DNA from: a virus
Lineage: Duplodnaviria; Heunggongvirae; Uroviricota; Caudoviricetes
Direction: 5' to 3' (one strand)
DNA: 23,666 nt
IMG/VR virus record: IMGVR_UViG_2617270998_000010
Position 1 is the stretch's first letter. Every line of letters starts with the position of its first letter. A program made the position numbers and the translations under genes. The notes under the pieces are model-generated. The model saw only the letters and a program-made list of their open reading frames with translations, ran no database searches and was not told the DNA's origin. This document shows, piece by piece, positions 1-16,566 of the stretch.

Positions 1-1053
1 TTACGGGGTAATGCCAACCGCTGCCGCCACTTTGTCGCCACTTGGCAGCGTTGCCAGAGGATTGAAACGGAGCGCCGTTTCCAGATGATCCGGTGCCAGA
101 TGTGCGTAACGCATAGTCATTTTTATATCGTGGTGTCCGAGAATTTTTTGTAAGGCCAGAATGTTTCCACCCGACATCATGAAGTGCGCTGCAAACGTAT
201 GGCGCAGAACGTGTGTGAGTTGACCGCGAGGGAGCACGATAGACGTTTTTTCCATCACGGATAAAAATTGAAAATAGCAGTCTGTGAAGAAATTGAACCC
301 ATCGAGCGCCATGATCTCTTCGTAAAGCTCTTTACTGATAGGGATGCTTCTGTTTTTCTTCCCCTTCGTTCTGACAAAGGTAATTCGGTATTTGGTCACC
401 TGTGAGCGGGTAAGATTTACGGCTTCACGCCAGCGTGCGCCTGTGCTTAAGCATATCTTAACTACCAGTGCCAGAATTGGGTCCTGACGTTTGCAATCAG
501 CCAGCAATTCAACAATCTGCTCATGGGTAAGCCATGCCATCTCTTTTTCTGCGATGGTGAATTTTCGCATGTTCTCCAGTGGGTTCGGATACGACCATTC
601 GCCCAGACGGGATAGTTCGCTAAAAACACTACTTAGATAGCTTTGCTCCAGGTTAATGGTGACCGGGCTTGCTCCTTTCTTCCATTTCTCGCTGAAGTAG
701 ATCTCGCCTGTCAGGCGTTTATCTCGATAGTGAGCAAACATTTTTGAGGTGAGATCAGTTGCAAGGGGATTTCCCAAGGCGTCAACCATCAACAGCAGCT
801 TGTTGTAGACATGCTGTCCGGCAGTAAGAGATTTGCCATGTAATTTGAACCATAGCTCAACCATATCTTTCAGTGTCCGACGATCCACTGATTCGCCCAG
901 CCAGGGTTTTGCTTCTATTTCCCCCATGGTGTATCGCTCGAAGGCCAGTGCTTCGCCTTTGGTGGCGAATTGTTTACGCACACGGCGTCCGCTACGTCCG
1001 GCGGGGTAACATTCGCAAAGCCATTTTCCTGTGGTGAGTTTTCGTACTGCCAT
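1..1053 (-). CDS. int: Phage tyrosine integrase (P2/186 Int family)
   Basis: ORF 1..1068 (-). C-terminal tyrosine-recombinase motifs (HVLRHTFAAH ... GHHDIKMTMRYAHL). Stop codon is at bases 1-3, so the gene is complete. Start placed at the second ATG (1053, MAVRK...) which has a GAGGG Shine-Dalgarno; the upstream ATG at 1068 is the alternative. Confidence 0.9.
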   Translation of the reverse strand: MAVRKLTTGKWLCECYPAGRSGRRVRKQFATKGEALAFERYTMGEIEAKPWLGESVDRRTLKDMVELWFKLHGKSLTAGQHVYNKLLLMVDALGNPLATDLTSKMFAHYRDKRLTGEIYFSEKWKKGASPVTINLEQSYLSSVFSELSRLGEWSYPNPLENMRKFTIAEKEMAWLTHEQIVELLADCKRQDPILALVVKICLSTGARWREAVNLTRSQVTKYRITFVRTKGKKNRSIPISKELYEEIMALDGFNFFTDCYFQFLSVMEKTSIVLPRGQLTHVLRHTFAAHFMMSGGNILALQKILGHHDIKMTMRYAHLAPDHLETALRFNPLATLPSGDKVAAAVGITP

Positions 1054-1060
1054 AAAAAAT

Positions 1061-1078
1061 GCCCTCATATCAGAGGGC
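1061..1078 (-). terminator. GC-rich hairpin (GCCCTC-N6-GAGGGC) followed on the minus strand by a T-run, immediately 5' of the int start; terminator-like or translational control element
   Basis: Inverted repeat read directly; on the minus strand the order is stem-loop, ATTTTTT, then the int ATG. The stem contains the int SD (GAGGG). Confidence 0.35.
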
Positions 1079-1144: not shown

Positions 1145-2089
1145 TTAATCTGTTTCTTTATCACTTCCAGTTACTTTAACTTTGTCTTTGATTGTATTCA
1201 AAAATGACGCAAAACTCGGTGGTTGCTCTGTCTGACCTGAAAATGCAGAGTCACCTGAAATATTCCAATCCTTAAAGACTTCTATTGCATCCTCTTTAGT
1301 TGCTGTAGAACCGTATATCTGCAAAAAAACTTGACCAAACATCAAAGCATGTCGACGATCTTTTCGCCTGATCGATTCATGTGTGTACTTTTTTGAGTTA
1401 CTAAGGCAGATATATGATAGCCATGAAAGAATGGCGATTCCAACTAATCCTCGCGTGAAGATATATATTAACTGAAGGTTAGTGAGATTTTTTAAATCTA
1501 AGTTCATGTATAATGTAAAAAAAGCAGATACTACTGCAAGGAAGCCAAAAAATACCCCTGCAATAGACCAGATAATAGACATCAATATAAAATGTTTGTC
1601 ATCACTACCAAGATCTGATTTAACATCGTTAACATAGGTGGGGATTTTATCATCGATTCTTTGTTGCTGTACTTGGCTACGGAGTTCCTTATTTTCACTA
1701 ATCAATGAATTAATTTGTTTTACGTTGTTTTCGATTATTGCGTTTTTTCTATTAAGATCCTGAGTATAATGCTCTAACTGTAGAGTTAATATGCTGTTTC
1801 GTTCTTCTAATTGTATTATATGTTCTACATAATTATTAGGTTCAAGTGATTTTACATTTTTTCTTTTATTGGCTTTATTTTCATTTATATTGGGTTCTTC
1901 ATCCATCGGTGGCCTAGTTATGTATTTTTCAATTAGCGCTAGGTTATTATGAGCTTCAGAAAGCTCTCCTGCTTCTATTAAGTCTTTTATATGAGAGTAG
2001 AAGTGTTTTGCTATATTTTCAGACTGTGAATCAAGAAATTCTAATAGGTGTTTTTTTATTTCGCTATCTTTATTGGTTGGTTCAGTCAT
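1145..2089 (-). CDS. Hypothetical membrane protein: N-terminal coiled-coil region, two predicted TM helices, short C-terminal domain; AT-rich insertion between cI and int
   Basis: 314-aa ORF. Hydrophobic stretches ILMSIIWSIAGVFFGFLAVVSAFFTLYM and LIYIFTRGLVGIAILSWLSYICL. Clearly lower GC than the flanking int and cI. Only 11 bp downstream of the cI stop on the same strand. No family recognised. Confidence 0.6.
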   Translation of the reverse strand: MTEPTNKDSEIKKHLLEFLDSQSENIAKHFYSHIKDLIEAGELSEAHNNLALIEKYITRPPMDEEPNINENKANKRKNVKSLEPNNYVEHIIQLEERNSILTLQLEHYTQDLNRKNAIIENNVKQINSLISENKELRSQVQQQRIDDKIPTYVNDVKSDLGSDDKHFILMSIIWSIAGVFFGFLAVVSAFFTLYMNLDLKNLTNLQLIYIFTRGLVGIAILSWLSYICLSNSKKYTHESIRRKDRRHALMFGQVFLQIYGSTATKEDAIEVFKDWNISGDSAFSGQTEQPPSFASFLNTIKDKVKVTGSDKETD

Positions 2090-3378: not shown

Positions 3379-3888
3379 ATGTTTGATTACCAAGTTTCCA
3401 AACATCCACATTTTGATGAAGCCTGTCGTGCATTCGCACTGCGCCACAATCTGGTGCAACTGGCAGAACGTGCAGGCATGAATGTGCAGATTCTGCGGAA
3501 CAAACTGAACCCAGCTCAACCTCATTTATTAACCGCACCAGAAATTTGGTTGCTTACCGATCTGACTGAAGATTCAACGCTGGTAGATGGTTTTCTGGCA
3601 CAGATTCATTGTCTGCCATGTGTTCCGATTAATGAGGTGGCAAAAGAGAAACTACCGCATTACGTCATGAGTGCAACCGCAGAGATCGGGCGTGTTGCTG
3701 CAGGTGCGGTATCTGGCGATGTAAAAACCAGTGCAGGTCGTCGTGATGCTATCAGCAGCATTAACTCTGTAACACGACTGATGGCGCTGGCCGCTGTTTC
3801 ATTGCAGGCCCGTTTACAGGCTAATCCTGCGATGGCGAATGCAGTTGATACCGTGACTGGCCTCGGTGCTTCATTCGGTTTGCTGTGA
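3379..3888 (+). CDS. cII: CII-like transcriptional activator (phage 186 CII family)
   Basis: Start at ATG 3379 (GAGGTG SD), inside ORF-track entry 3325..3888. N-terminus [24 protein letters not shown]...[17 protein letters not shown]...[21 protein letters not shown] matches my recollection of 186 CII closely; 169 aa. Confidence 0.75.
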
Positions 3889-4702: not shown

Positions 4703-4929
4703 TGGCTGATGCAATGGATCTCGTACAGCAGCGCGTTGAAGAAGAACGCCAGCGCCATATTCGTGCTGCCCGTGCCAAAACACCGGGCGTGTCTCGCGTG
4801 CTTTGTATTGAATGTGAAGCGCCAATTCCGCCAGCACGACGCCGCGCCATTCCGGGAGTGCAGCTTTGCATTACCTGCCAGGAAATCGCAGAGCTGAAAG
4901 GCAAACATTACAACGGAGGTGCTGTATGA
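4702..4929 (+). CDS. TraR/DksA-family C4 zinc-finger protein
   Basis: 75 aa with CxxC-N17-CxxC (CIECEAPIP...CITCQ) and an R-rich preceding helix; common in P2-like early operons; translationally coupled to its neighbours. Confidence 0.65.
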   Translation: MADAMDLVQQRVEEERQRHIRAARAKTPGVSRVLCIECEAPIPPARRRAIPGVQLCITCQEIAELKGKHYNGGAV

Positions 4930-5783
4930 GCACCATCCTGAAATGGGCGGGTAATAAAACCGCCATTATGTCCGAACTGAAAAAACACCTTCCTGCTGGC
5001 CCGCGACTGGTTGAACCTTTCGCGGGTTCCTGTGCTGTGATGATGGCGACGGATTACCCCAGCTATCTGGTTGCTGATATTAATCCTGATTTAATCAACC
5101 TCTATAAAAAGATTGCCGCTGATTGCGAATCATTTATATCTCGTGCCAGAGTCTTATTTGAGGAAGCAAACAGGGAGGTGGCTTATTACAACATAAGGCA
5201 GGAGTTTAATTACTCATCTGAAATTACTGATTTCATGAAAGCAGTATATTTCCTGTATCTCAATCGTCACGGTTACCGTGGGTTATGTCGTTATAACAAG
5301 AGCGGACATTTCAACATTCCCTACGGGAATTATAAAAATCCGTATTTCCCTGAAAAAGAAATTCGCGCATTTGCAGAAAAAGCCCAGCGGGCAACGTTTA
5401 TCTGCGCCAGCTTTGATGAAACGCTGGCGATGTTGAAGGCGGGGGATGTGGTGTATTGCGATCCGCCTTATGACGGTACGTTTTCCGGCTATCACACTGA
5501 TGGTTTCACTGAAGATGACCAGTATCACCTGGCATCCGTTCTTGAACATCGATCATCTGAAGGACATCCGGTCATTGTTTCTAACAGTGACACATCCCTG
5601 ATTCGTTCGCTGTATCGCAATTTTACTCACCACTATATCAAGGTAAAACGCAGCATCGGTGTGGCAGCTGGCGAGTGTAAATCAGCAACAGAAATCATCG
5701 CTGTTTCCGGGCCGCGCTGCTGGGTGGGATTTGATCCTTCGCGTGGCGTGGATAGTTCTGCCGTGTACGGAGTGCGTGCATGA
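4926..5783 (+). CDS. dam: DNA adenine methyltransferase (Dam-like, orphan N6-MTase)
   Basis: Start ATG 4926 inside ORF 4866..5783. N-terminus [20 protein letters not shown]...LVEPFAGS (AdoMet motif) and DPPY motif ([10 protein letters not shown]), similar to E. coli Dam. Confidence 0.85.
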
Positions 5784-8194
5784 GCCATGCTGATATGAAC
5801 AACTGCAGCGGCTTTAACGAGGTCGCAGCAGCATTCTCATGGAGCAGCCCGAAAAAGGCCATTAACCCTTATCTGGACCCGGCGGAAGTTGCGCCGGTTT
5901 CTGCGCTTTCAAACCTGATCACTCTGTACGCTGCCGATAACGAGCAGGAACAGCTGCGCCGTGAGGCGCTGAGTGATCAGGTCTGGGAGCGTTATTTCTT
6001 TAATGAATCCCGTGATCCTGTCCAGCGCGAAATCGAGCAGGATAAGCTCATTAGTCGGGCAAAGCTGGCGCATGAGCAGCAGCGTTTTAATCCGGATATG
6101 GTCATTCTGGCGGACGTCAACGCCCAGCCTTCCCATATCAGCAAGCCGCTGATGCAACGTATTGAATACTTCAGCAGCCTGGGCAGGCCAAAGGCTTATT
6201 CCCGCTATTTGCGTGAGACGATTAAGCCATGTCTGGAACGACTGGAGCATGTACGCGAGAGTCAGCTATCCACTTCTTTTCGCTTTATGGCAAGCCATGA
6301 AGGGCTGGACGGCCTGCTGATCCTGCCTGAAATGAGTCAGGATCAGGTGAAGCGCCTGTCTACCCTTGTTGCCGCGCATATGAGCATGTGCCTTGATGCA
6401 GCTTGTGGTGATTTGTATGCCACCGATGACGTTAAGCCAGAAGAAATCCGCAAGACATGGGAAAAGGTGGCAGCGGAAACCCTGCGTCTGGATGTAATCC
6501 CTCCTGCGTTTGAGCAACTCCGTCGGAAAAGAAACCGCCGTAAACCCGTGCCCTATGAACTCATTCCGGGTTCGCTGGCGCGTATGTTGTGCGCCGACTG
6601 GTGGTATCGGAAATTATGGAAGATGCGTTGCGAATGGCGGGAAGAGCAGTTGCGTGCTGTCTGCCTGGTCAGCAAAAAAGCATCTCCCTATGTCAGCTAT
6701 GAAGCCGTGATGCATAAACGTGAGCAGCGCCGTAAGTCGCTGGAGTTTTTCCGTTCTCATGAACTGGTGAACGAAGACGGCGACACGCTGGACATGGAGG
6801 ATGTGGTAAACGCCAGCAGCAGCAACCCGGCGCATCGCCGCAATGAGATGATGGCCTGTGTTAAAGGTCTGGAGCTTATCGCGGAAATGCGCGGTGACTG
6901 CGCCGTTTTCTACACCATCACCTGTCCGTCACGTTTCCATTCCACGCTCAATAACGGCAGACCAAACCCGACCTGGACAAACGCGACGGTAAGACAAAGC
7001 AGCGATTATCTGGTCGGCATGTTTGCTGCATTTCGTAAGGCGATGCACAAAGCCGGGTTGCGCTGGTATGGCGTGCGGGTGGCTGAGCCGCATCATGACG
7101 GCACAGTTCACTGGCACCTGTTGTGTTTCATGCGCAAAAAAGACCGCCGTGCCATCACTGCATTACTGCGTAAGTTTGCCATCCGTGAAGACCGCGAGGA
7201 GCTGGGCAATAACACTGGGCCGCGCTTTAAGTCTGAGTTGATTAACCCGCGCAAAGGAACGCCAACAAGCTACATCGCGAAATACATCAGTAAGAACATT
7301 GACGGGCGTGGTCTGGCTGGCGAGATCAGCAAGGAAACGGGGAAATCCCTGCGTGATAATGCTGAATACGTTAATGCCTGGGCGTCTCTGCATCGTGTTC
7401 AGCAATTCCGCTTCTTTGGCATTCCGGGGCGTCAGGCTTACCGTGAACTGCGATTGCTGGCTGGTCAGGCGGCAAGGCAACAGGGGGACAAAAAAGCAGG
7501 TGCGCCGGTACTGGATAACCCACGCCTTGATGCCATCCTGGCTGCTGCTGATGCTGGTTGTTTTGCCACCTACATCATGAAGCAGGGCGGCGTACTGGTT
7601 CCCCGCAAATATCACCTCATCAGAACCGCTTATGAAATCAACGAAGAGCCGACCGCCTATGGCGATCACGGCATTCGTATTTATGGCATCTGGTCACCTA
7701 TTGCAGAGGGCAAGATCTGCACTCATGCCGTGAAGTGGAAAATGGTTCGTAAGGCCGTTGATGTTCAGGAGGCGGCAGCCGACCAGGGCGCTTGCGCCCC
7801 TTGGACTCGTGGCAATAACTGTCCCCTTGCTGAAAATTTGAACCAACAGGAGAAAGATAAATCAGCTGATGGGGACACCAGAACGGATATTACCCGCATG
7901 GATGACAAGGAGTTGCACGATTTTCTGCACAGTATGAACAAAAAAGAGCGCCGGGAACTGGCTGCAAGGTTACGCCTGGTGAAACCGAAACGGCGTAGAG
8001 ACTACAAACAGCGAATTACAGACCATCAACGACAGCAGCTCGTCTATGAACTGAAGTCCAGAGGATTTGATGGCAGCGAGAAAGAGGTCGATTTACTCCT
8101 TCGCGGTGGCAGTATTCCGTCAGGAGCAGGCCTGCGTATCTTCTATCGGAACCAGCGTCTGAAGGAAGATGATAAGTGGCGGAACCTGTATTAA
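5780..8194 (+). CDS. A: Replication initiation endonuclease gpA (rolling-circle, HUH family)
   Basis: 804-aa ORF; HUH-like motif ([10 protein letters not shown]) and tyrosine motif ([14 protein letters not shown]); position and size match P2 gpA / 186 A; ATGA overlap with dam. Confidence 0.9.
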
Positions 8195-8286
8195 TTACGC
8201 GGGTTAACAATTCGTGCTCTTAATAATACCAGGCATATCAGGCCGATGAACGTAAAAAAACGTTTTACATCAGTAAGATTATTATA

Positions 8287-8306
8287 TACTGTAAATATAA
8301 ACAGTG
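8287..8306. promoter_or_regulatory. LexA operator (SOS box) TACTGTAAATATAAACAGTG upstream of the tum/DinI-like operon
   Basis: CTGT-N8-ACAG with 17/20 identity to the consensus TACTGTATATATATACAGTA, about 40 bp upstream of the 8347 start; TATACT -10-like hexamer overlaps it. Confidence 0.6.
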
Positions 8307-8346
8307 GTTATGTATACAGTATTGCTTTGGTGTTATAGGAGGAAAG

Positions 8347-8535
8347 ATGCAGGACTATTTTTTGGAGTCTTTGAAGCTCCAGCGCATTGATTTTTTTCTT
8401 AAGCTTGTAGCGGCTAGCGAGTGTAGTGATGAAGAGAAGGGGCTGGCTTTGCAGTGGGTTTCTGAATTGACTGATGAACTCATGGCAAAAATCAGAACCC
8501 ACGAATACAACCGCTCAATGGATGTCATCAGTTGA
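8347..8535 (+). CDS. Small SOS-regulated protein, possible Tum-like antirepressor
   Basis: 62-aa ORF with strong AGGAGG SD immediately downstream of the LexA box; equivalent position to 186 tum. Functional assignment is by context. Confidence 0.45.
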   Translation: MQDYFLESLKLQRIDFFLKLVAASECSDEEKGLALQWVSELTDELMAKIRTHEYNRSMDVIS

Positions 8536-8545
8536 GGTGACTTTT

Positions 8546-8779
8546 ATGCGCATTGAAATAATGATCGATAAAGAGCAGAAGATTAGCCAGTCTATCCTGG
8601 ACGCCCTTGAATCCGAGCTTTACCGCAATCTGCGCCCCCTGTATCCCAAAACGGTAATTCGTATCCGCAAAGGTAGCACTAACGGTGTGGAACTGACCGG
8701 ACTGCAACTGGACGAAGAAAGGAAGCAAGTGATGAAAATTATGCAGAAGGTGTGGGAAGACGACAGCTGGCTGCATTAA
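8546..8779 (+). CDS. DinI-family protein
   Basis: Start ATG 8546 (GAGGTG SD) inside ORF 8474..8779. MRIEIMIDK...DALESEL...ERKQVMKIMQKVWEDDSW parallels E. coli DinI (MRIEVTIAK...DALAGEL...KQRISEILQETWESADDW). Confidence 0.7.
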   Translation: MRIEIMIDKEQKISQSILDALESELYRNLRPLYPKTVIRIRKGSTNGVELTGLQLDEERKQVMKIMQKVWEDDSWLH

Positions 8780-9049
8780 GAAACGTTGCTGGCGTCTGAA
8801 CTTGCTTCTGGCGTCAGCAAGGTTGAACAACGAGCTATGCGAGGCGTTAGTGTCAATTTGTTACCTTAACCACTATATATGCCAGGAAATTAACAGTTCT
8901 TAAGAAACCGCTTGCATGATCGAGCGCATTGAACTTAAGTTTAAGTAACGAAATCAACAGATGATATTGTTGTCTAAATTTTAAAGATAATCTGTTGAGG
9001 TTGTAGGCGTCGAAGTGTAGACTTCCGCGCCATGTGAAAAGGGGGAGTT

Positions 9050-9265
9050 ATGTCAAGCATCGCCGCATTTAGCCTGGGTAACCCAGTTGAACGTCTGGCA
9101 AGGGTTCTTAAAGAGAACCAGGACAAACTCAATCTTAGTAAAGATGGTTTTGTGTCCGTAGACTTGTCTAACAAAAGAGCAATGGATGCCATCAAGGCAC
9201 AGATGGATAAGCTTGAAGGCATCAAAACGAGCACTGTAAAAGAGAAAACTAATAGAACCAGATAA
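9050..9265 (+). CDS. Hypothetical small soluble protein (71 aa), first gene of a coupled accessory pair
   Basis: ATG 9050 preceded by AAGGGGGAG; predicted helical and charged; stop overlaps the next start (TAATG at 9263-9267). Confidence 0.5.
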   Translation: MSSIAAFSLGNPVERLARVLKENQDKLNLSKDGFVSVDLSNKRAMDAIKAQMDKLEGIKTSTVKEKTNRTR

Positions 9266-10107
9266 TGGCAACATTACTTTTAGCAGTGATTTTGGTTAGT
9301 GGTTTTATTTATGTAAACCTATCACTTTCAACAAGATACCGATATAAGCGTTCCAACGGCTGGGACGCTTATTTTTTTGTGGCTGCCTGGGGTATCGTTT
9401 TTTTTCTCCTTGGCGGTTTTTTCACCTTTATTTTGAACGTCAGCGGAGGGTTTCGTTTGCTGGCTAATGCCTTGAATCTAACACCTGACAGTTTTAATGG
9501 CATGTTGTCTTCATCGAAAGACAAACTTCAAAGAATAAATGAAATTAAACAGATAGCATGGGTTATGATTTCAATTGTCCTCGCTGCGATTTCAGGTTTT
9601 GGAAATAAGTTACGCACATCACGTGGAGATCGTCGCTGGGATGCCTTAGCTAAAGCTGTGGGTAATAACGCTTTCGAATCATTACTTATGGAAGCGTCCG
9701 CAAGACAGTTTCCGATCATAGCAACTCTGTCGTCTCGCAAAATCTATGTTGGCCTTGTTACTTGTCCGGCGTTAGAAAACGGGCTTTCAGAGCACCTTGA
9801 ACTTCTCCCGATGTTAAGCGGATATCGGGATAAAGATGATCTAACGATTAGTATCACGACTAACTATCACCAACATTATCTTGATAGTGGTGTGATAAGT
9901 GGAATGTCTCGGCTTAATATCGAAGATTTCCGTGTGCTCATACCAAAAGATGAGGTTGAAACAATTTCGTTTTTTGATACTGAGACATATAACAAATTTA
10001 AAGAAAATGAAGCCAGGGATAGAAAGAACTGTCGAAAGATTGGTAGTAAAAGTGCATCTTCGCGCAGCAAGCGTGCAGCAGATGCTGAGTCAAATGATCG
10101 TGCATGA
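9265..10107 (+). CDS. Hypothetical membrane protein (three predicted N-terminal TM helices plus about 160-aa soluble C-terminal domain with basic tail)
   Basis: 280-aa ORF. Hydrophobic segments at res 3-20, 35-57 and 95-112. AT-rich. Sits between the tum module and cos, the old/tin position of P2. No family recognised. Confidence 0.6.
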   Translation: MATLLLAVILVSGFIYVNLSLSTRYRYKRSNGWDAYFFVAAWGIVFFLLGGFFTFILNVSGGFRLLANALNLTPDSFNGMLSSSKDKLQRINEIKQIAWVMISIVLAAISGFGNKLRTSRGDRRWDALAKAVGNNAFESLLMEASARQFPIIATLSSRKIYVGLVTCPALENGLSEHLELLPMLSGYRDKDDLTISITTNYHQHYLDSGVISGMSRLNIEDFRVLIPKDEVETISFFDTETYNKFKENEARDRKNCRKIGSKSASSRSKRAADAESNDRA

Positions 10108-10154
10108 CTATGCTGCATGAGATCGCATGATCGTTTGAGGATCATTTTTGCTAA

Positions 10155-10180
10155 GGCCCGCCAGAACTGGCGGGCTTTTG
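10155..10180 (+). terminator. Rho-independent terminator (GCCCGCC-N6-GGCGGGC followed by TTTT)
   Basis: Perfect 7-bp GC stem and T-tract read directly, 48 bp after the stop of the 9265..10107 gene. Confidence 0.7.
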
Positions 10181-10224
10181 CGTAGATCATGCAACTGCAT
10201 GAAAACCACTACATAAAGCGGGCA

Positions 10225-10243
10225 GGCGTGGCGGGGATACGAG
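10225..10243 (+). other. Probable cos site (19-nt cohesive end) GGCGTGGCGGGGATACGAG
   Basis: Close to the P2/186 cohesive-end sequence as I recall it (GGCG[A/T]GGCGGGGAAAGCA.), with GCGCGCT conserved just downstream; correct orientation relative to the portal gene. Confidence 0.5.
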
Positions 10244-10353
10244 CGCGCGCTCATGGTTGAATTAATGAAATTATGGTGTTAAATAGGCTAGCTTTTTAAG
10301 TCGTGAATATTCAATTTTTCAACTCATTTTTTTCATAGGGAGGAGTAATTGAC

Positions 10354-11052
10354 ATGGTTATGTTAGTGGATGACTGTCCACGATGTGGATCACAAAAAAT
10401 AGCGTTTGATGTTAATGGGCTGAATTGCACTAGGGTTTACAATGCATTGGGCGGGGGTAAAACATACGAGTACGAGGTCTATTGTGTTTGCCGAGAGTGT
10501 CATAAAACGACAATGTTTCTTTGCAGACCTTTAACGAAAAATAAAACTTTAGATGGCTATAATTGGAAAAGTGGAATATTCGGCTTAAAGGAAGTTGCAG
10601 AGGTTGTTAGGCCTATATCACCAGCAGACTTAGCAGTAGAGGAGCCACCAGAGTTCTTACCTGAGCATATCAATAGTGCATATGAGGAAGGGGCGAAATG
10701 TTTGGCTATAGGTTGTTATAATGCAGCAGCAACCATGTTTAGGCTTTGCCTTGATTATGCCACAAAAGGACTTCTTCCTGATGGGGAGCAAGGGCCTGCG
10801 CAAAAAATAAGGAGAAGCCTAGGGTTAAGAATGGAGTGGTTATTTGATAATCATCTACTGCCTGAAGCTTTAAGGGAACTAGCTGAATGCGTTAAAGATG
10901 ACGGAAATGATGGAGCGCATGAAGGTATTTTGGATAAAGCTGCTGCTGAGGATCTTGAAGATTTTACCTATCTTTTTTTAGAACGGCTTTACACTGAACC
11001 TCAACGCCTTATCGAAGCCAAGACAAGGCGTGAACAAAGAAGAAACAAATAA
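10354..11052 (+). CDS. Hypothetical protein: N-terminal Zn-ribbon (CPRCG...CRECH) plus C-terminal DUF4145/HEPN-like domain; accessory gene between cos and Q
   Basis: 232-aa ORF, ATG 10354 with GGGAGGAG SD. Two CxxC pairs in the first 50 residues. C-terminal alpha-helical region ending ...LAECVKDDGNDGAHEG resembles the GN-x-AH signature I associate with DUF4145. AT-rich; convergent with Q (stops 8 bp apart). Confidence 0.6.
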   Translation: MVMLVDDCPRCGSQKIAFDVNGLNCTRVYNALGGGKTYEYEVYCVCRECHKTTMFLCRPLTKNKTLDGYNWKSGIFGLKEVAEVVRPISPADLAVEEPPEFLPEHINSAYEEGAKCLAIGCYNAAATMFRLCLDYATKGLLPDGEQGPAQKIRRSLGLRMEWLFDNHLLPEALRELAECVKDDGNDGAHEGILDKAAAEDLEDFTYLFLERLYTEPQRLIEAKTRREQRRNK

Positions 11053-11060
11053 GTTCGGAA

Positions 11061-12098
11061 TTATTCTTCTGAAAGAATATAGGGCGTAAATTTAATCACT
11101 TCTTCGCCCAGCCAGTCGTTCAGCTCTTGTAGCCTTTTTTGCAAGGGCGTTAATTCATTACGTACAAATACGCGACTGGCTTTCTCCACATCCCCAAACC
11201 CCCCGACATTATTAGGCATTATCCCCATCATTTGTGGCGGCACACGATGCGCCGCCATCATGTCGTCCCGGCTCACGTTCTTGATATTCAGGAACTCATC
11301 CTTCGCCGCCACTTCTGACAACGGGATAATCTGAAGCCCGTCCTTTTTACCGTTAGGCGAGTACATAAACAGGTTACGGAAGTTACCAGGACCTTTGGCG
11401 CTTTTCATCGCATTGCGGAGGTTGTTCACATCCTCCTGGTTCTGCGCAGCATCGGTCATGTACATGATGAAGCCTGCATGACTGCCGTTAATGTAATACT
11501 TGCGGCGGAACAGCGTGGCGGACTCGTTGAGCAGAGCTGACGGAATGGCAGAAAGATAACCGGGCAGGCCGTAGATCTCCTGGTTGATGTCCGGTTCCAT
11601 CAGATGAAAAATGTTGCCTTTCGTGAACTGATACGACTGCGTAGTCATACCGTATTGCACAAACCAGTAGGTATCCAGGTCTAACCCGCGTCGGGTGTAT
11701 TTTGCCAGTGCAGGCTCAAGGGCGATAACTTCACCGAAGCGGTTCGTGCGTTTCTCCAGGTAGGCGTTACCAAAAACCAGATAGTCCTGTACAAAACGCG
11801 AAAAAGCCTGCTGGCTGAGCAGCGGGTGAGGGATGTAGGTGCTGGTCAGAATGTTGCACTTCACTGCAATCGGTGAGCTGTGATGCACGGCGGCGCGGAA
11901 GGTTCGCGCCAGTCCGTCGAAACTCACAGGCGGCTCATACCAACGATCCATCTGTACGCATTCCACATAGTCCAGCAGTTCGCGGCGGTCCAGAACAGGA
12001 ACGGGATCACCGAAGCTGAATGCTTCGGCTGAAGTCTGGCTTTTATGCTGGATCTGTTTCGTCGACGCAGCGCGGTTTTTCTTACTCTTTCCCATCAA
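11061..12098 (-). CDS. Q: Portal protein gpQ
   Basis: 345-aa ORF, size and position as P2 Q; overlaps the P stop (ATGA-type overlap at 12095-12098). Confidence 0.9.
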   Translation of the reverse strand: MMGKSKKNRAASTKQIQHKSQTSAEAFSFGDPVPVLDRRELLDYVECVQMDRWYEPPVSFDGLARTFRAAVHHSSPIAVKCNILTSTYIPHPLLSQQAFSRFVQDYLVFGNAYLEKRTNRFGEVIALEPALAKYTRRGLDLDTYWFVQYGMTTQSYQFTKGNIFHLMEPDINQEIYGLPGYLSAIPSALLNESATLFRRKYYINGSHAGFIMYMTDAAQNQEDVNNLRNAMKSAKGPGNFRNLFMYSPNGKKDGLQIIPLSEVAAKDEFLNIKNVSRDDMMAAHRVPPQMMGIMPNNVGGFGDVEKASRVFVRNELTPLQKRLQELNDWLGEEVIKFTPYILSEE

Positions 12099-13861
12099 AA
12101 AATCTCCACAATATTGCTGGTATTGGCGGACTCGCCCTGCAGCGGTTCATTAAACAGTGCGTGCATTGTTGCCCAGGCCAGATCGGCGTGGCTGGCTTCT
12201 TCGCTGCGGCTGGCTTCATAGGTCGGGCGGTTGCCGCTGGCAGTGGTGGCGCGACGGATTGCCATAAAGGACTGCGCTATGTCGGTGTGCCCGGCGTCAA
12301 ACTCCAGGCGGCGGTGGCTAATAATGTCGTAGGCCTTGAGTACCAGGGCGTTTTTAACGTTGGGGTTGTAGACAAACTCCCGGACGGCAGGAAAGAACGC
12401 TTTCACGTTCTCATAAACCCCGTGACCGACACCTGTCGAGTCGATGCCGATGTATGTCACGTTGTACTGTTCGGTCAGTTTTTTGATGGCGTCCGCCTGG
12501 GCGCGGAAGTCCATCCCGCGCCACTGGTGACGCTCAAGAATACGGAACTTACCGCCCGGCACGGCTGGCGGAGCCACCACCACGCACCCGGCACTGTCAC
12601 CGTTCTGCGTACCTTTTGCCGGGTCATAACCGATCCACACCTCTCGCCAGCCAAACGGGCGCAGGGCCAGTGCATGAAAGTCGGTCCAGACTTCCCAACT
12701 GTCCACCATGCACGCCTGCAGTTCGCTGAGCGGGAACACGGACGCGAGATCGTCCACAAACTCGCACATCAGCAGGTTCTGGTATTCGTCCGGGCTGTAC
12801 TCCATGCGCAGCTGGTCGAGGTCGAATAGGTTACAGCCGCCGCACACCGCATCTTCCACGGTGACTATCTGGCGGTATTGCCCGTCTGCGCACAGCAGGC
12901 CGGGGGCCAGATTGCTGTGGGACAGGTCGATGTCCACCTTGTCGGCTTTGTTGCGCCCACGGTTGAACAGCGCACCGGACCAGAACGGATAAGCACTGTG
13001 GGTCAGGCTGGATGGTGTGGAAAAATAGGTCTGCCGCCATTTCTTGTGAATAGCCATACCGGAAGCCACTTTGCGTAGCTCCTGAAATTTCGGTATCCAG
13101 AAATATTCATCCAGATACAGGTTGCCGTGATAACTCTGGGCCGTGCGGGCATTGGTGCCGAGGAAGTAAAGCGTGGCCCCGTTAGGAAGCACCATCGGAT
13201 CGCCTTTCAGCTCCACCTCCACTTCTTTGGCGAAGTCGATGATGTACTGCTTAAAGACGTGGGCCTGTGCCTTACTGGCGGAAAGGAAAATCTGGTTACG
13301 CCCGGTAAGCAGGGCGTCAATCAGGGCTTCACGGGCAAAGTAAAAGGTCGCGCCGATCTGGCGTGACTTCAGCAGGTTGCGGATGCGGTTGGTTTTTCCG
13401 GCTTCCCACCAGTGGCGCTGGTAGTTGAACATGGAGGAATGGAAGATTTCTTCCAGCTTCTCAATCTGCTCATCGGTGAAGACATTTTTTTCCGGCTGAC
13501 GGCGCGGGCCTTTGTTGCGGTTGGCGACGTTAGGGTTTAAGTCAGCTTCGTTGCCGCCATTGTTAAACTTGCCGATCCGCGCGTGGCGCTCAGACTGGCG
13601 CGCCAGCAGGTCAATCTCTTTGAAATCTTTCCCTTCTTTGTGCTCCTTCATAATGAGCTGGCAGTAGCGTGCGGCGGTGGTGAGCTGCATCTGATCCAGC
13701 GGCCCATAGTCACCCCACTTGTCGCGTTTTTTCCAGCTGTGAACGGTTGCAACTTTCTCGCCCAGCATTTCAGCAATGCGGGCGACGCGGTATCCCTGAA
13801 AGTACAGCAGCATGGCCTGCCGACGGGGATCGAGATCTGCGGGTGTCAGTGTGGTGTTCAT
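12095..13861 (-). CDS. P: Terminase large (ATPase) subunit gpP
   Basis: 588-aa ORF co-oriented with Q; size and position as P2 P (about 590 aa); divergent from the O-N-M-L operon. Confidence 0.9.
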   Translation of the reverse strand: MNTTLTPADLDPRRQAMLLYFQGYRVARIAEMLGEKVATVHSWKKRDKWGDYGPLDQMQLTTAARYCQLIMKEHKEGKDFKEIDLLARQSERHARIGKFNNGGNEADLNPNVANRNKGPRRQPEKNVFTDEQIEKLEEIFHSSMFNYQRHWWEAGKTNRIRNLLKSRQIGATFYFAREALIDALLTGRNQIFLSASKAQAHVFKQYIIDFAKEVEVELKGDPMVLPNGATLYFLGTNARTAQSYHGNLYLDEYFWIPKFQELRKVASGMAIHKKWRQTYFSTPSSLTHSAYPFWSGALFNRGRNKADKVDIDLSHSNLAPGLLCADGQYRQIVTVEDAVCGGCNLFDLDQLRMEYSPDEYQNLLMCEFVDDLASVFPLSELQACMVDSWEVWTDFHALALRPFGWREVWIGYDPAKGTQNGDSAGCVVVAPPAVPGGKFRILERHQWRGMDFRAQADAIKKLTEQYNVTYIGIDSTGVGHGVYENVKAFFPAVREFVYNPNVKNALVLKAYDIISHRRLEFDAGHTDIAQSFMAIRRATTASGNRPTYEASRSEEASHADLAWATMHALFNEPLQGESANTSNIVEIF

Positions 13862-15915: not shown

Positions 15916-16566
15916 ATGAGCCTGAGTCCCGCACGGCAGCATCGCCTGCGCGTTCAGGCTGAACAGGCCGCCCGCGAGGGCGGCAGTGTTCGCCACGCAT
16001 CGGGCTATGACCTGATGCTGCTGCAACTGGCGGAAGACCGCCGCCGTCTCAAGGGCGTTCAGTCCACGGTCAAAAAAGCGGAAATCAAGGTGGAGCTGCT
16101 GCCGAAATATGCCGCCTGGGCGGAGGGAGTCCTGGCTGCCGGAGGCGCTCAACAGGATGACGTGCTGATGTACGTGATGCTGTGGCGCATTGATGCCGGA
16201 GATTATGCCGGGGCGCTGGAGATCGGGCGTCATGCCCTGCGTCATGGCTGGGTGATGCCGCTGGGTAACCGCAATGTGCAGACCGTGCTGGCAGAGGAAA
16301 TGGCAGACGCGGCACAGAGCGCAATGCTTGCCACTACCGGGTTTGATGCCGATCTGTTGCTGCAGACGCTGGAGCTGACAGACGGTCTGGATATGCCGGA
16401 CCAGTCACGGGCGCGTCTGCATAAAGCGATTGGCGCAGTCCTGAGTGAAAGCAATCCGGCTTCCGCCCTTAATCATCTCAACCAGGCGTTACAGCTCGAT
16501 CCCCGCTGTGGCGTGAAAAAAGACAAACAGCAGCTGGAGCGCAGACTGCGCAATGACAGCCGCTGA
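15916..16566 (+). CDS. M: Terminase small (endonuclease) subunit gpM
   Basis: 216-aa ORF directly after N, as in P2. Confidence 0.85.
   Translation: MSLSPARQHRLRVQAEQAAREGGSVRHASGYDLMLLQLAEDRRRLKGVQSTVKKAEIKVELLPKYAAWAEGVLAAGGAQQDDVLMYVMLWRIDAGDYAGALEIGRHALRHGWVMPLGNRNVQTVLAEEMADAAQSAMLATTGFDADLLLQTLELTDGLDMPDQSRARLHKAIGAVLSESNPASALNHLNQALQLDPRCGVKKDKQQLERRLRNDSR

Follow-up and report, generated by a model that had tools for sequence, protein, structure and literature searches.

Where is the genome of a P2-like prophage cut for packaging, and which genes does the cut place at the two ends of the virion DNA? This question is raised by a short sequence in IMG/VR record IMGVR_UViG_2617270998_000010, a stretch of 23,666 nucleotides (nt; hereafter the window) that covers part of an E. 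coli prophage, P2-like and of the Fels-2/Cartapus type (Peduoviridae). On first reading of the letters alone, this sequence had been taken for a cohesive-end site (cos) of the P2/186 kind that defines the virion ends, with accessory genes on both sides of it (the original prediction). Our follow-up leads us to conclude with high confidence that positions 10100-10250 are the cos site of this prophage, cut by its terminase, and that the flanks of the site serve for the exchange of accessory genes. Observation and interpretation were both correct, and the feature is one that is already known.

Homology to known cos sites

The two strings on which the original prediction was built, the 19-mer GGCGTGGCGGGGATACGAG and CGCGCGCT directly after it, are both present inside the range that it gave (10215-10260). 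The 19-mer is single-copy in the window when up to 3 mismatches are allowed on both strands. For comparison, the circular junctions of P2, 186 and P4 were rebuilt from their linear records, in which 19-nt ends are annotated as cohesive ends, and 38 nt to the left, the 19-mer and 8 nt to the right were compared without gaps. Over these 65 nt the window shares 47 identities with P2, 53 with 186 and 49 with P4, and within the overhang 14/19, 15/19 and 14/19, respectively. When both strands were scanned, position 10187 (+) scored highest in the window for P2, 186 and P4 alike. In 200 dinucleotide-shuffled versions of the window, scores went no higher than 35-37 of 65, and the 19-mer itself occurred in 0 of 100 such shuffles. 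A chance resemblance is ruled out by these shuffle tests, given a maximum of 37 as opposed to 47-53 identities, and the likeness to the P2/186 cos was borne out by the alignment.

In the ungapped alignment with 186, TCATGCAACTGCATTAAAACCGACCCATAAAGTGGGCA / GGCGTGGCGGGGAAAGCAT / TGCGCGCC of this phage stand opposite TCATGCAACTGCATGAAAACCACTACATAAAGCGGGCA / GGCGTGGCGGGGATACGAG / CGCGCGCT of the window. The first 13 bases of the overhang differ solely at position 5 (T, as in 186). Its 3' part, ATACGAG as opposed to AAAGCAC or AAAGCAT, is the most divergent stretch of the core, and the 4-5 substitutions that separate the overhang from those of P2, 186 and P4 are concentrated in this 3' third. Common to the window, P2, 186 and P4 are the location of the site with respect to gpA and Q, the TGCAT boxes (about -124, -111, -101 and -29, counted from the top-strand nick), and an AAAACC...AAGYGGGCR core followed by a GC-rich 19-nt overhang and YGCGCGC. 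The latter motif follows the overhang in P2, 186, P4, SEN8, Fels-2, SEN4, Aeromonas phage LPM4, Ralstonia phage YO139_2 and Pseudomonas phage Dobby. Closest to the window are Fels-2, SEN8 and Cartapus (Felsduovirus/Elveevirus, Peduoviridae), in which the 19-mer and its immediate flanks are the same. The identity is 100% over 10196-10250 in Fels-2 and over 10197-10360 in Cartapus, the latter stretch including the start of the DUF4145 gene to the right. The neighbouring genes differ, however: Cartapus differs from the window in the genes on the left of cos, Fels-2 and SEN8 in those on either side.

The gene context agrees with this homology. The site lies between the gpA module and the Q and P genes, both of which are transcribed towards cos, and the layout in P2 and 186 is identical. 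The gpA-62-amino-acid (aa) open reading frame (ORF)-DinI order is shared with Fels-2 and Cartapus. Over its full length, the large terminase subunit (TerL) shares 63% identity with P2 gpP, and the small subunit (TerS), likewise full-length, is 49% identical to gpM. Sequence homology, gene context and the family-wide conservation described below all point to a cos site of a P2-like prophage.

The mode of cutting would resemble that at lambda cos (cosQ-cosN-cosB), where a two-subunit terminase introduces staggered nicks to yield 5' cohesive ends and the recognition sequences lie mostly on one side. Such a one-sided asymmetry is indicated here by the conservation of the module. There is no sequence relationship with lambda cos, the lambda overhang is 12 nt instead of 19 nt long, and P2 packages from monomeric circles rather than concatemers.

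A conserved module between two variable flanks

An exact scan of IMG/VR for the 19-mer returned at least 120 viral contigs with at least 121 occurrences, which were lined up, ungapped, at the 19-mer. Across 10100-10250 most columns agree with the window at an identity of 0.8-1.0 and a few are lower; identity falls at once to a random level of about 0.25-0.35 on both sides of this 151-bp block. The block is strongly asymmetric: on the gpA side of the overhang 125 nt are conserved, on the side of the portal gene nothing but CGCGCGC. We found this block also in 25 species genomes of Enterobacterales (Klebsiella, Enterobacter, Citrobacter, Serratia, Pantoea and others), always adjoining gpA and/or Q. 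Of the complete E. coli genomes, 1274 of 5426 carry it. There, matches typically stop at about 10248-10250, and a break at 10249-10256 was seen as well.

Some copies of the module reside on replicons annotated as plasmids, in 8 places in E. coli plasmids and once on a Klebsiella sp. replicon of about 775 kb ('plasmid unnamed6', NZ_CP170106.1), which indicates P2-like prophages integrated in, or maintained as, plasmids. One contig, IMGVR_UViG_3300011853_000021, contains two inverted copies of the 19-mer (3447-3465 on the minus strand and 6704-6722 on the plus strand) separated by 3.2 kb, with the palindromic order Q - cos - DinI / DinI - cos - Q. The most likely source is a chimera from metagenome assembly or a head-to-head pair of prophage fragments.

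Within the module, the most regular elements are the TGCAT boxes. The first of them falls at the left edge of the conserved block, and the box distances are equal in the window, 186, P4 and SEN8. The outermost box lies at -123 in P2, where the sequence between the boxes cannot be aligned, and at -134 in Fels-2. The -29 box occurs at its exact distance in 10 of 10 Peduoviridae lineages compared, as TGCAT in the window, Fels-2, P2, 186, P4, LPM4 and YO139_2, as TGCAG in Stenotrophomonas phage Smp131 and in Dobby, and as TGCAC in SEN4. Of the distal boxes, the Ralstonia phage has counterparts at -110 and -100, and Dobby has one at -110. Among P4-like satellites, which share nothing else with their helpers, 74 had an identifiable cos, and the six that were inspected keep the box order at about -125, -111, -101 and -29 to -30. 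By analogy with lambda cosB, the boxes are probably recognition elements of the terminase, bound by its small subunit.

A GC-rich hairpin with an 11-bp stem and a 4-nt loop, followed by UUUU, lies between the distal boxes and the core. For the region 10140-10195 a minimum free energy of -26.9 kcal/mol was calculated (z = -4.7). The hairpin that 186 has at this position carries the annotation terminator t95b, and there is one in P4 as well. P2 is devoid of it, and its neighbouring gene old points away from cos. A role of the hairpin as packaging element was considered and rejected because of its absence in P2 and the t95b annotation in 186, and on the same grounds we read it as an intrinsic terminator that ends rightward transcription of gpA, DinI and the cargo before cos.

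Next to this constancy stands the diversity of the flanks. We clustered 300 nt on either side of the block in those loci with the identical 19-mer that were among the matches listed, to which the following numbers refer. The right flank fell into at least 76 sequence clusters (n=113) and the left flank into at least 50 (n=115), and at least 100 different left/right combinations were found in 108 loci. Even the biggest left cluster, with 20 loci, occurred together with at least 16 right clusters. The distance from cos to the end of Q ranged from 147 to 3525 nt (820 nt in the window) and that from DinI to cos from 205 to 3211 nt (1448 nt in the window). Because both the sequence types and the distances are highly variable, the genes on either side can be regarded as non-core cargo. 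In P2 and 186 the portal gene abuts cos at a distance of about 170 nt and all cargo is on the gpA side (old/tin, orf97), whereas the window has an 820-nt cargo segment between cos and Q as well, an arrangement that is common in the Fels-2 group.

Accumulation of cargo at this place is not a new phenomenon. Rousset et al. (2022, PMC9122126) studied the stretch from gpA to gpQ next to cos, counted 1,650 gene arrangements among 18,150 loci, validated a number of defence systems from this hotspot and discussed a recombination driven by the cos ends. The locus, the bounding genes and the extreme diversity are the same as in the window, whose cargo falls under the hotspot definition, as it lies between gpA and gpQ and adjoins cos. 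In the part of the arrangement table available to us (PMC9122126), the 71-aa protein WP_000094764 is listed at least 21 times and the DUF4145 protein WP_000245245 at least 17 times. Since cargo near cos has already been published for P2-like phages (PMC9122126), nothing new follows from its presence here. The main text of that study treats the region as one gpA-gpQ hotspot, whereas our comparison resolves two independently varying slots that are split by the 151-bp cos module. This two-slot resolution is a refinement and not a new phenomenon.

The same data allow for another explanation of the length of the module: the block could be kept mainly as a recombination anchor and terminator for the swapping of cassettes, while packaging would require only the core of about 55 bp. 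The mosaic break-points fall exactly at the block edges, the left and right cargo assort almost freely, as the at least 16 partners of the biggest left cluster illustrate, the block holds a terminator hairpin that is absent from P2, and Rousset et al. (PMC9122126) speculate that cos ends drive exchange. However, in P2 and in the six inspected P4-like satellites the distal boxes stand within 1 nt of their positions in the window (the outermost box of Fels-2 excepted), although the intervening sequence and the neighbouring genes are unrelated. As the positions are kept amid unrelated sequence, it appears that the function of the boxes depends on how far from the nick they lie and that mere homology does not account for them. 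We therefore consider it unlikely that anchoring is what mainly maintains the block. It is moreover compatible with the function of the module as a cos site and does not replace it.

Probable nick positions and virion ends

That the site defines the ends of the virion genome, as originally predicted, is supported by homology. The nicks would lie at 10224/10225 on the top strand and at 10243/10244 on the bottom strand and leave 5' overhangs. These positions and the 5' protrusion are inferred because the ends in the relatives were set by analogy; they go back to the annotations of P2 and 186 and to the description of their 19-nt 5'-extruding ends. For P2/P4-type cos, 5' ends of 19 nt have been described, along with a region of 55 bp that P2 and P4 have conserved in common (Ziermann & Calendar 1990, as cited in PMC3931495 and PMC9594776). 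In SEN8, a plaque-forming Salmonella phage, bases 1-19 of the record are the same 19-mer and carry the feature 'putative cos site' (PMC5427200). The Cartapus record begins 32 nt upstream of the 19-mer, and its bases 1-59 are labelled 'putative cos site, homologous to the cos of P2 phage'. The homologous first G is where the SEN4 and Smp131 records begin, and the SEN8 and EtG records stop one base short of it.

Several points weigh against the identification of the site as a functional cos. A physical mapping of the ends for exactly this overhang variant was not found in the literature, and the ends of SEN8, Cartapus, SEN4 and Smp131 were, according to the respective papers, all annotated by analogy with P2. 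Given 4-5 differences from P2 and 186 in the 3' third of the overhang, it is an assumption that the nick positions are identical to theirs. The role attributed to the boxes comes from their conservation only. None of the IMG/VR or GTDB stretches that bear the 19-mer ends at the site, the stretches examined being cut-out contig stretches only. Finally, the window spans only part of the prophage (23.7 kb), so that its overall integrity is not established.

The divergence of the overhang could mean that the site is a true cos at which the terminase cuts elsewhere than in P2 and 186, with another overhang length or in another register. The 3' part of the overhang, ATACGAG, is the most altered stretch of the core, TerS has only 49% identity with gpM, and every annotation of this variant relies on analogy. 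On the other hand, AAAGCGGGCA and CGCGCGC, which are situated just outside the presumed nicks, are conserved in register with P2, 186 and P4 without a gap, and TerL, the nuclease-bearing subunit, is the one with 63% identity to gpP. A different cut is thus very unlikely. Least probable of all is that the site is a cos-derived relic in a defective prophage or is no longer cut, and hence defines no virion ends: tail and lysis genes are outside the window, and the related prophage Cartapus yields few virions and has no known indicator strain, but the visible packaging and head genes are all full-length with strong family matches, the core is fully identical in Fels-2 and the 19-mer with its immediate flanks is identical in the plaque-forming SEN8, and the block is kept across at least 145 loci of many genera while the flanks are random, which argues for purifying selection on the block. 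The prophage itself is apparently intact.

For a cos site cut in the P2/186 register, the following course of events can be proposed. Upon induction and excision the genome would circularise, and the terminase (gpM small and gpP large subunits, encoded 2-6 kb to the right) would recognise the 151-bp module and nick the strands with a stagger of 19 nt at the positions given above. The virion DNA would be linear with 5'-protruding GGCGTGGCGGGGATACGAG ends that re-anneal after injection. The recognition elements would be located almost exclusively on the gpA side, comprising the TGCAT boxes at -124, -111, about -101 and -29 and the core AAAACC...AAAGCGGGCA, and the portal side would need only CGCGCGC. 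Because everything outside the module would be dispensable for packaging, accessory genes could have come to be inserted and exchanged in both flanks.

The position of cos would also fix the map of the virion. The right end would carry last the pair of genes for a 71-aa and a 280-aa protein, the latter with transmembrane (TM) segments and an Sm-like domain, closed by the terminator, and the left end would begin with the zinc-ribbon/HEPN-like gene of RAZR-type architecture. As the genes on either side are non-core and highly variable, both virion termini carry cargo, in agreement with what had been predicted from the sequence.

Accessory genes, satellites and the remaining prophage

The left pair had been described as a membrane pair. 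This applies to the 280-aa ORF, which has three TM-like segments, but not to the 71-aa ORF, which has none. Neither protein matched any of the defence models scanned. Between DinI and the pair lies a 270-nt non-coding gap (8780-9049), in which an inverted repeat right after DinI is followed by AT-rich sequence and, ahead of the 71-aa ORF, by a strong Shine-Dalgarno sequence (AAGGGGGAG). This suggests that the left pair is a 'moron' unit of its own, extending from promoter to terminator.

The protein encoded on the right combines a Cys4 zinc ribbon with a C-terminal DUF4145 (HEPN-like) domain. The zinc-ribbon residues C8, C11, C46 and C49 do not vary among 39 homologues, and β-strands are predicted for residues 3-59. 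Invariant in these homologues are also K181 and H189 in the motif KDDGNDGAH, the lysine being located eight residues before the histidine, and the protein has further invariant arginines, R130 and R159. A search of PDB chains gave no sequence hit for this protein. The PADLOC model PDLC04109 (PD-T7-4) matched over part of its length (E 1.2e-6, 26 bits; model positions 39-165 of 211). The PD-T7-4 protein RAZR has the same architecture of zinc ribbon and DUF4145/HEPN-like domain and is distant in sequence. Its catalytic R146 is located eight residues before H154 (Zhang et al. 2026, PMC13017515), so that the spacing equals that of K181 and H189 with lysine in place of arginine, a comparison based on spacing. 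With this cargo, the locus provides two uncharacterised candidates for defence screening.

The variation of cos between phages could have consequences for P4-like satellites. Our satellite sample is biased, as it comes from exact-match searches and contains only close relatives of Psu among the matches listed. Within it, the Fels-2-type cos (ATACGAG) was found on 0 of 74 Psu-bearing P4-like IMG/VR satellites. Conversely, P4 psu, sid, delta and alpha were found in 0 of 145 ATACGAG-cos loci (at least 120 from IMG/VR and 25 genome loci). The satellite overhangs read AAAGCAC in 59 cases, AGAGCAT in 9 and combinations with AGAGCAT or GGAGCAT in others, and all of them end in GCA[C/T], which is the P2/186 type. 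Due to the biased sampling, the absence of ATACGAG satellites is weak evidence. It is a tentative and rather doubtful idea that cos variants, defined by the 3' third of the overhang and by the TGCAT or TGCAG type of the boxes, form packaging-specificity groups that decide which satellites can pirate which phages. If it were true that a Fels-2-type terminase and a P2-type cos are mutually incompatible, the divergence of cos would represent an escape from satellite parasitism and the phased array of TGCAT boxes would be a specificity determinant.

Otherwise, our analysis re-identifies a textbook element within a published hotspot. It makes modest additions: the limits of the module at base level (10100-10250), which reveal two independently assorting cargo slots; the phased TGCAT boxes in phages from E. 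coli to Ralstonia, with TGCAG at the same positions in Pseudomonas and Stenotrophomonas phages; and fold-level descriptions of two uncharacterised cargo proteins. For practical purposes, the 151 bp are marked as the stretch to keep in an engineered derivative or a cosmid.

Table 1. Features of the window. Positions are those of the 23,666-nt stretch; distances of boxes refer to the presumed top-strand nick.
Feature	Position	Strand	Remarks
Integrase	1-1068	-	
314-aa ORF between integrase and repressor	1145-2089	-	Pfam: no match
CI-type repressor, 311 aa	2101-3036	-	PF07022 helix-turn-helix in two matched stretches; CI C-terminal domain
Dam methylase	4866-5783		
gpA replication endonuclease	5780-8194	+	Pfam Phage_GPA, 1.4e-127
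62-aa ORF	8347-8535	+	
DinI	about 8546-8779	+	Pfam DinI, 2.5e-22
Left cargo gene 1, predicted 71-aa soluble protein	9050-9265	+	phrog_9843; Pfam: no hit; RefSeq WP_000094764
Left cargo gene 2, predicted 280-aa membrane protein with C-terminal Sm/Hfq-like β-barrel	9265-10107	+	
Whole conserved cos module, 151 bp	10100-10250	+	125 nt left, 19-nt overhang, 7 nt right
Distal TGCAT box	10101-10105	+	-124
Distal TGCAT box	10114-10118	+	-111
Degenerate cGCAT box	10124-10128	+	-101
GC-rich hairpin and T-run (probable terminator)	10153-10180	+	11-bp stem, 4-nt loop, then UUUU
Left arm of cos core, TCATGCAACTGCATGAAAACCACTACATAAAGCGGGCA	10187-10224	+	Ungapped with P2, 186 and P4; contains proximal box
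Proximal TGCAT box	10196-10200	+	-29
Putative 19-nt cohesive-end sequence, GGCGTGGCGGGGATACGAG	10225-10243	+	
CGCGCGCT directly after the 19-mer	10244-10251	+	
CGCGCGC, sole conserved sequence on portal side of overhang	10244-10250	+	Conservation stops at 10250/10251
Right cargo gene, 232 aa, Cys4 zinc ribbon and DUF4145 (HEPN-like)	10354-11052	+	RefSeq WP_000245245
Portal, gpQ homologue	11061-12098	- (reads towards cos)	Pfam Phage_portal; position and orientation as P2 Q and 186 W
Terminase large subunit, gpP homologue	12095-13861	-	Pfam Terminase_5, Terminase_6N, Terminase_6C
Terminase small subunit, gpM homologue	15916-16566	+	Pfam Phage_term_smal, 1.4e-40

The remaining genes of the window are arranged around the site as expected from its relatives (Table 1). 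gpA, the 62-aa ORF and DinI (5780-8779) are the core genes that bound the hotspot on the left, with phrog_698 among their matches. The scaffold gene O and the capsid gene N lie between P and M, which gives the overall layout gpA-DinI ... cos ... Q(-) P(-) O N M. The nearest phage records are Escherichia phage Cartapus, a P2-like prophage of E. coli LF82, Fels-2 and many Peduoviridae of Klebsiella and Salmonella. The complete genome of E. coli JSMCR1 matches positions 8200-11100 of the window with 99.1%, and RefSeq annotates the same ORFs there. The 314-aa ORF between the integrase and the repressor may represent a further accessory-gene slot of the prophage. The repressor ORF exceeds the length expected for a 186-type CI; this could be explained by a duplicated N-terminal domain or by an ORF that extends upstream of the true start.
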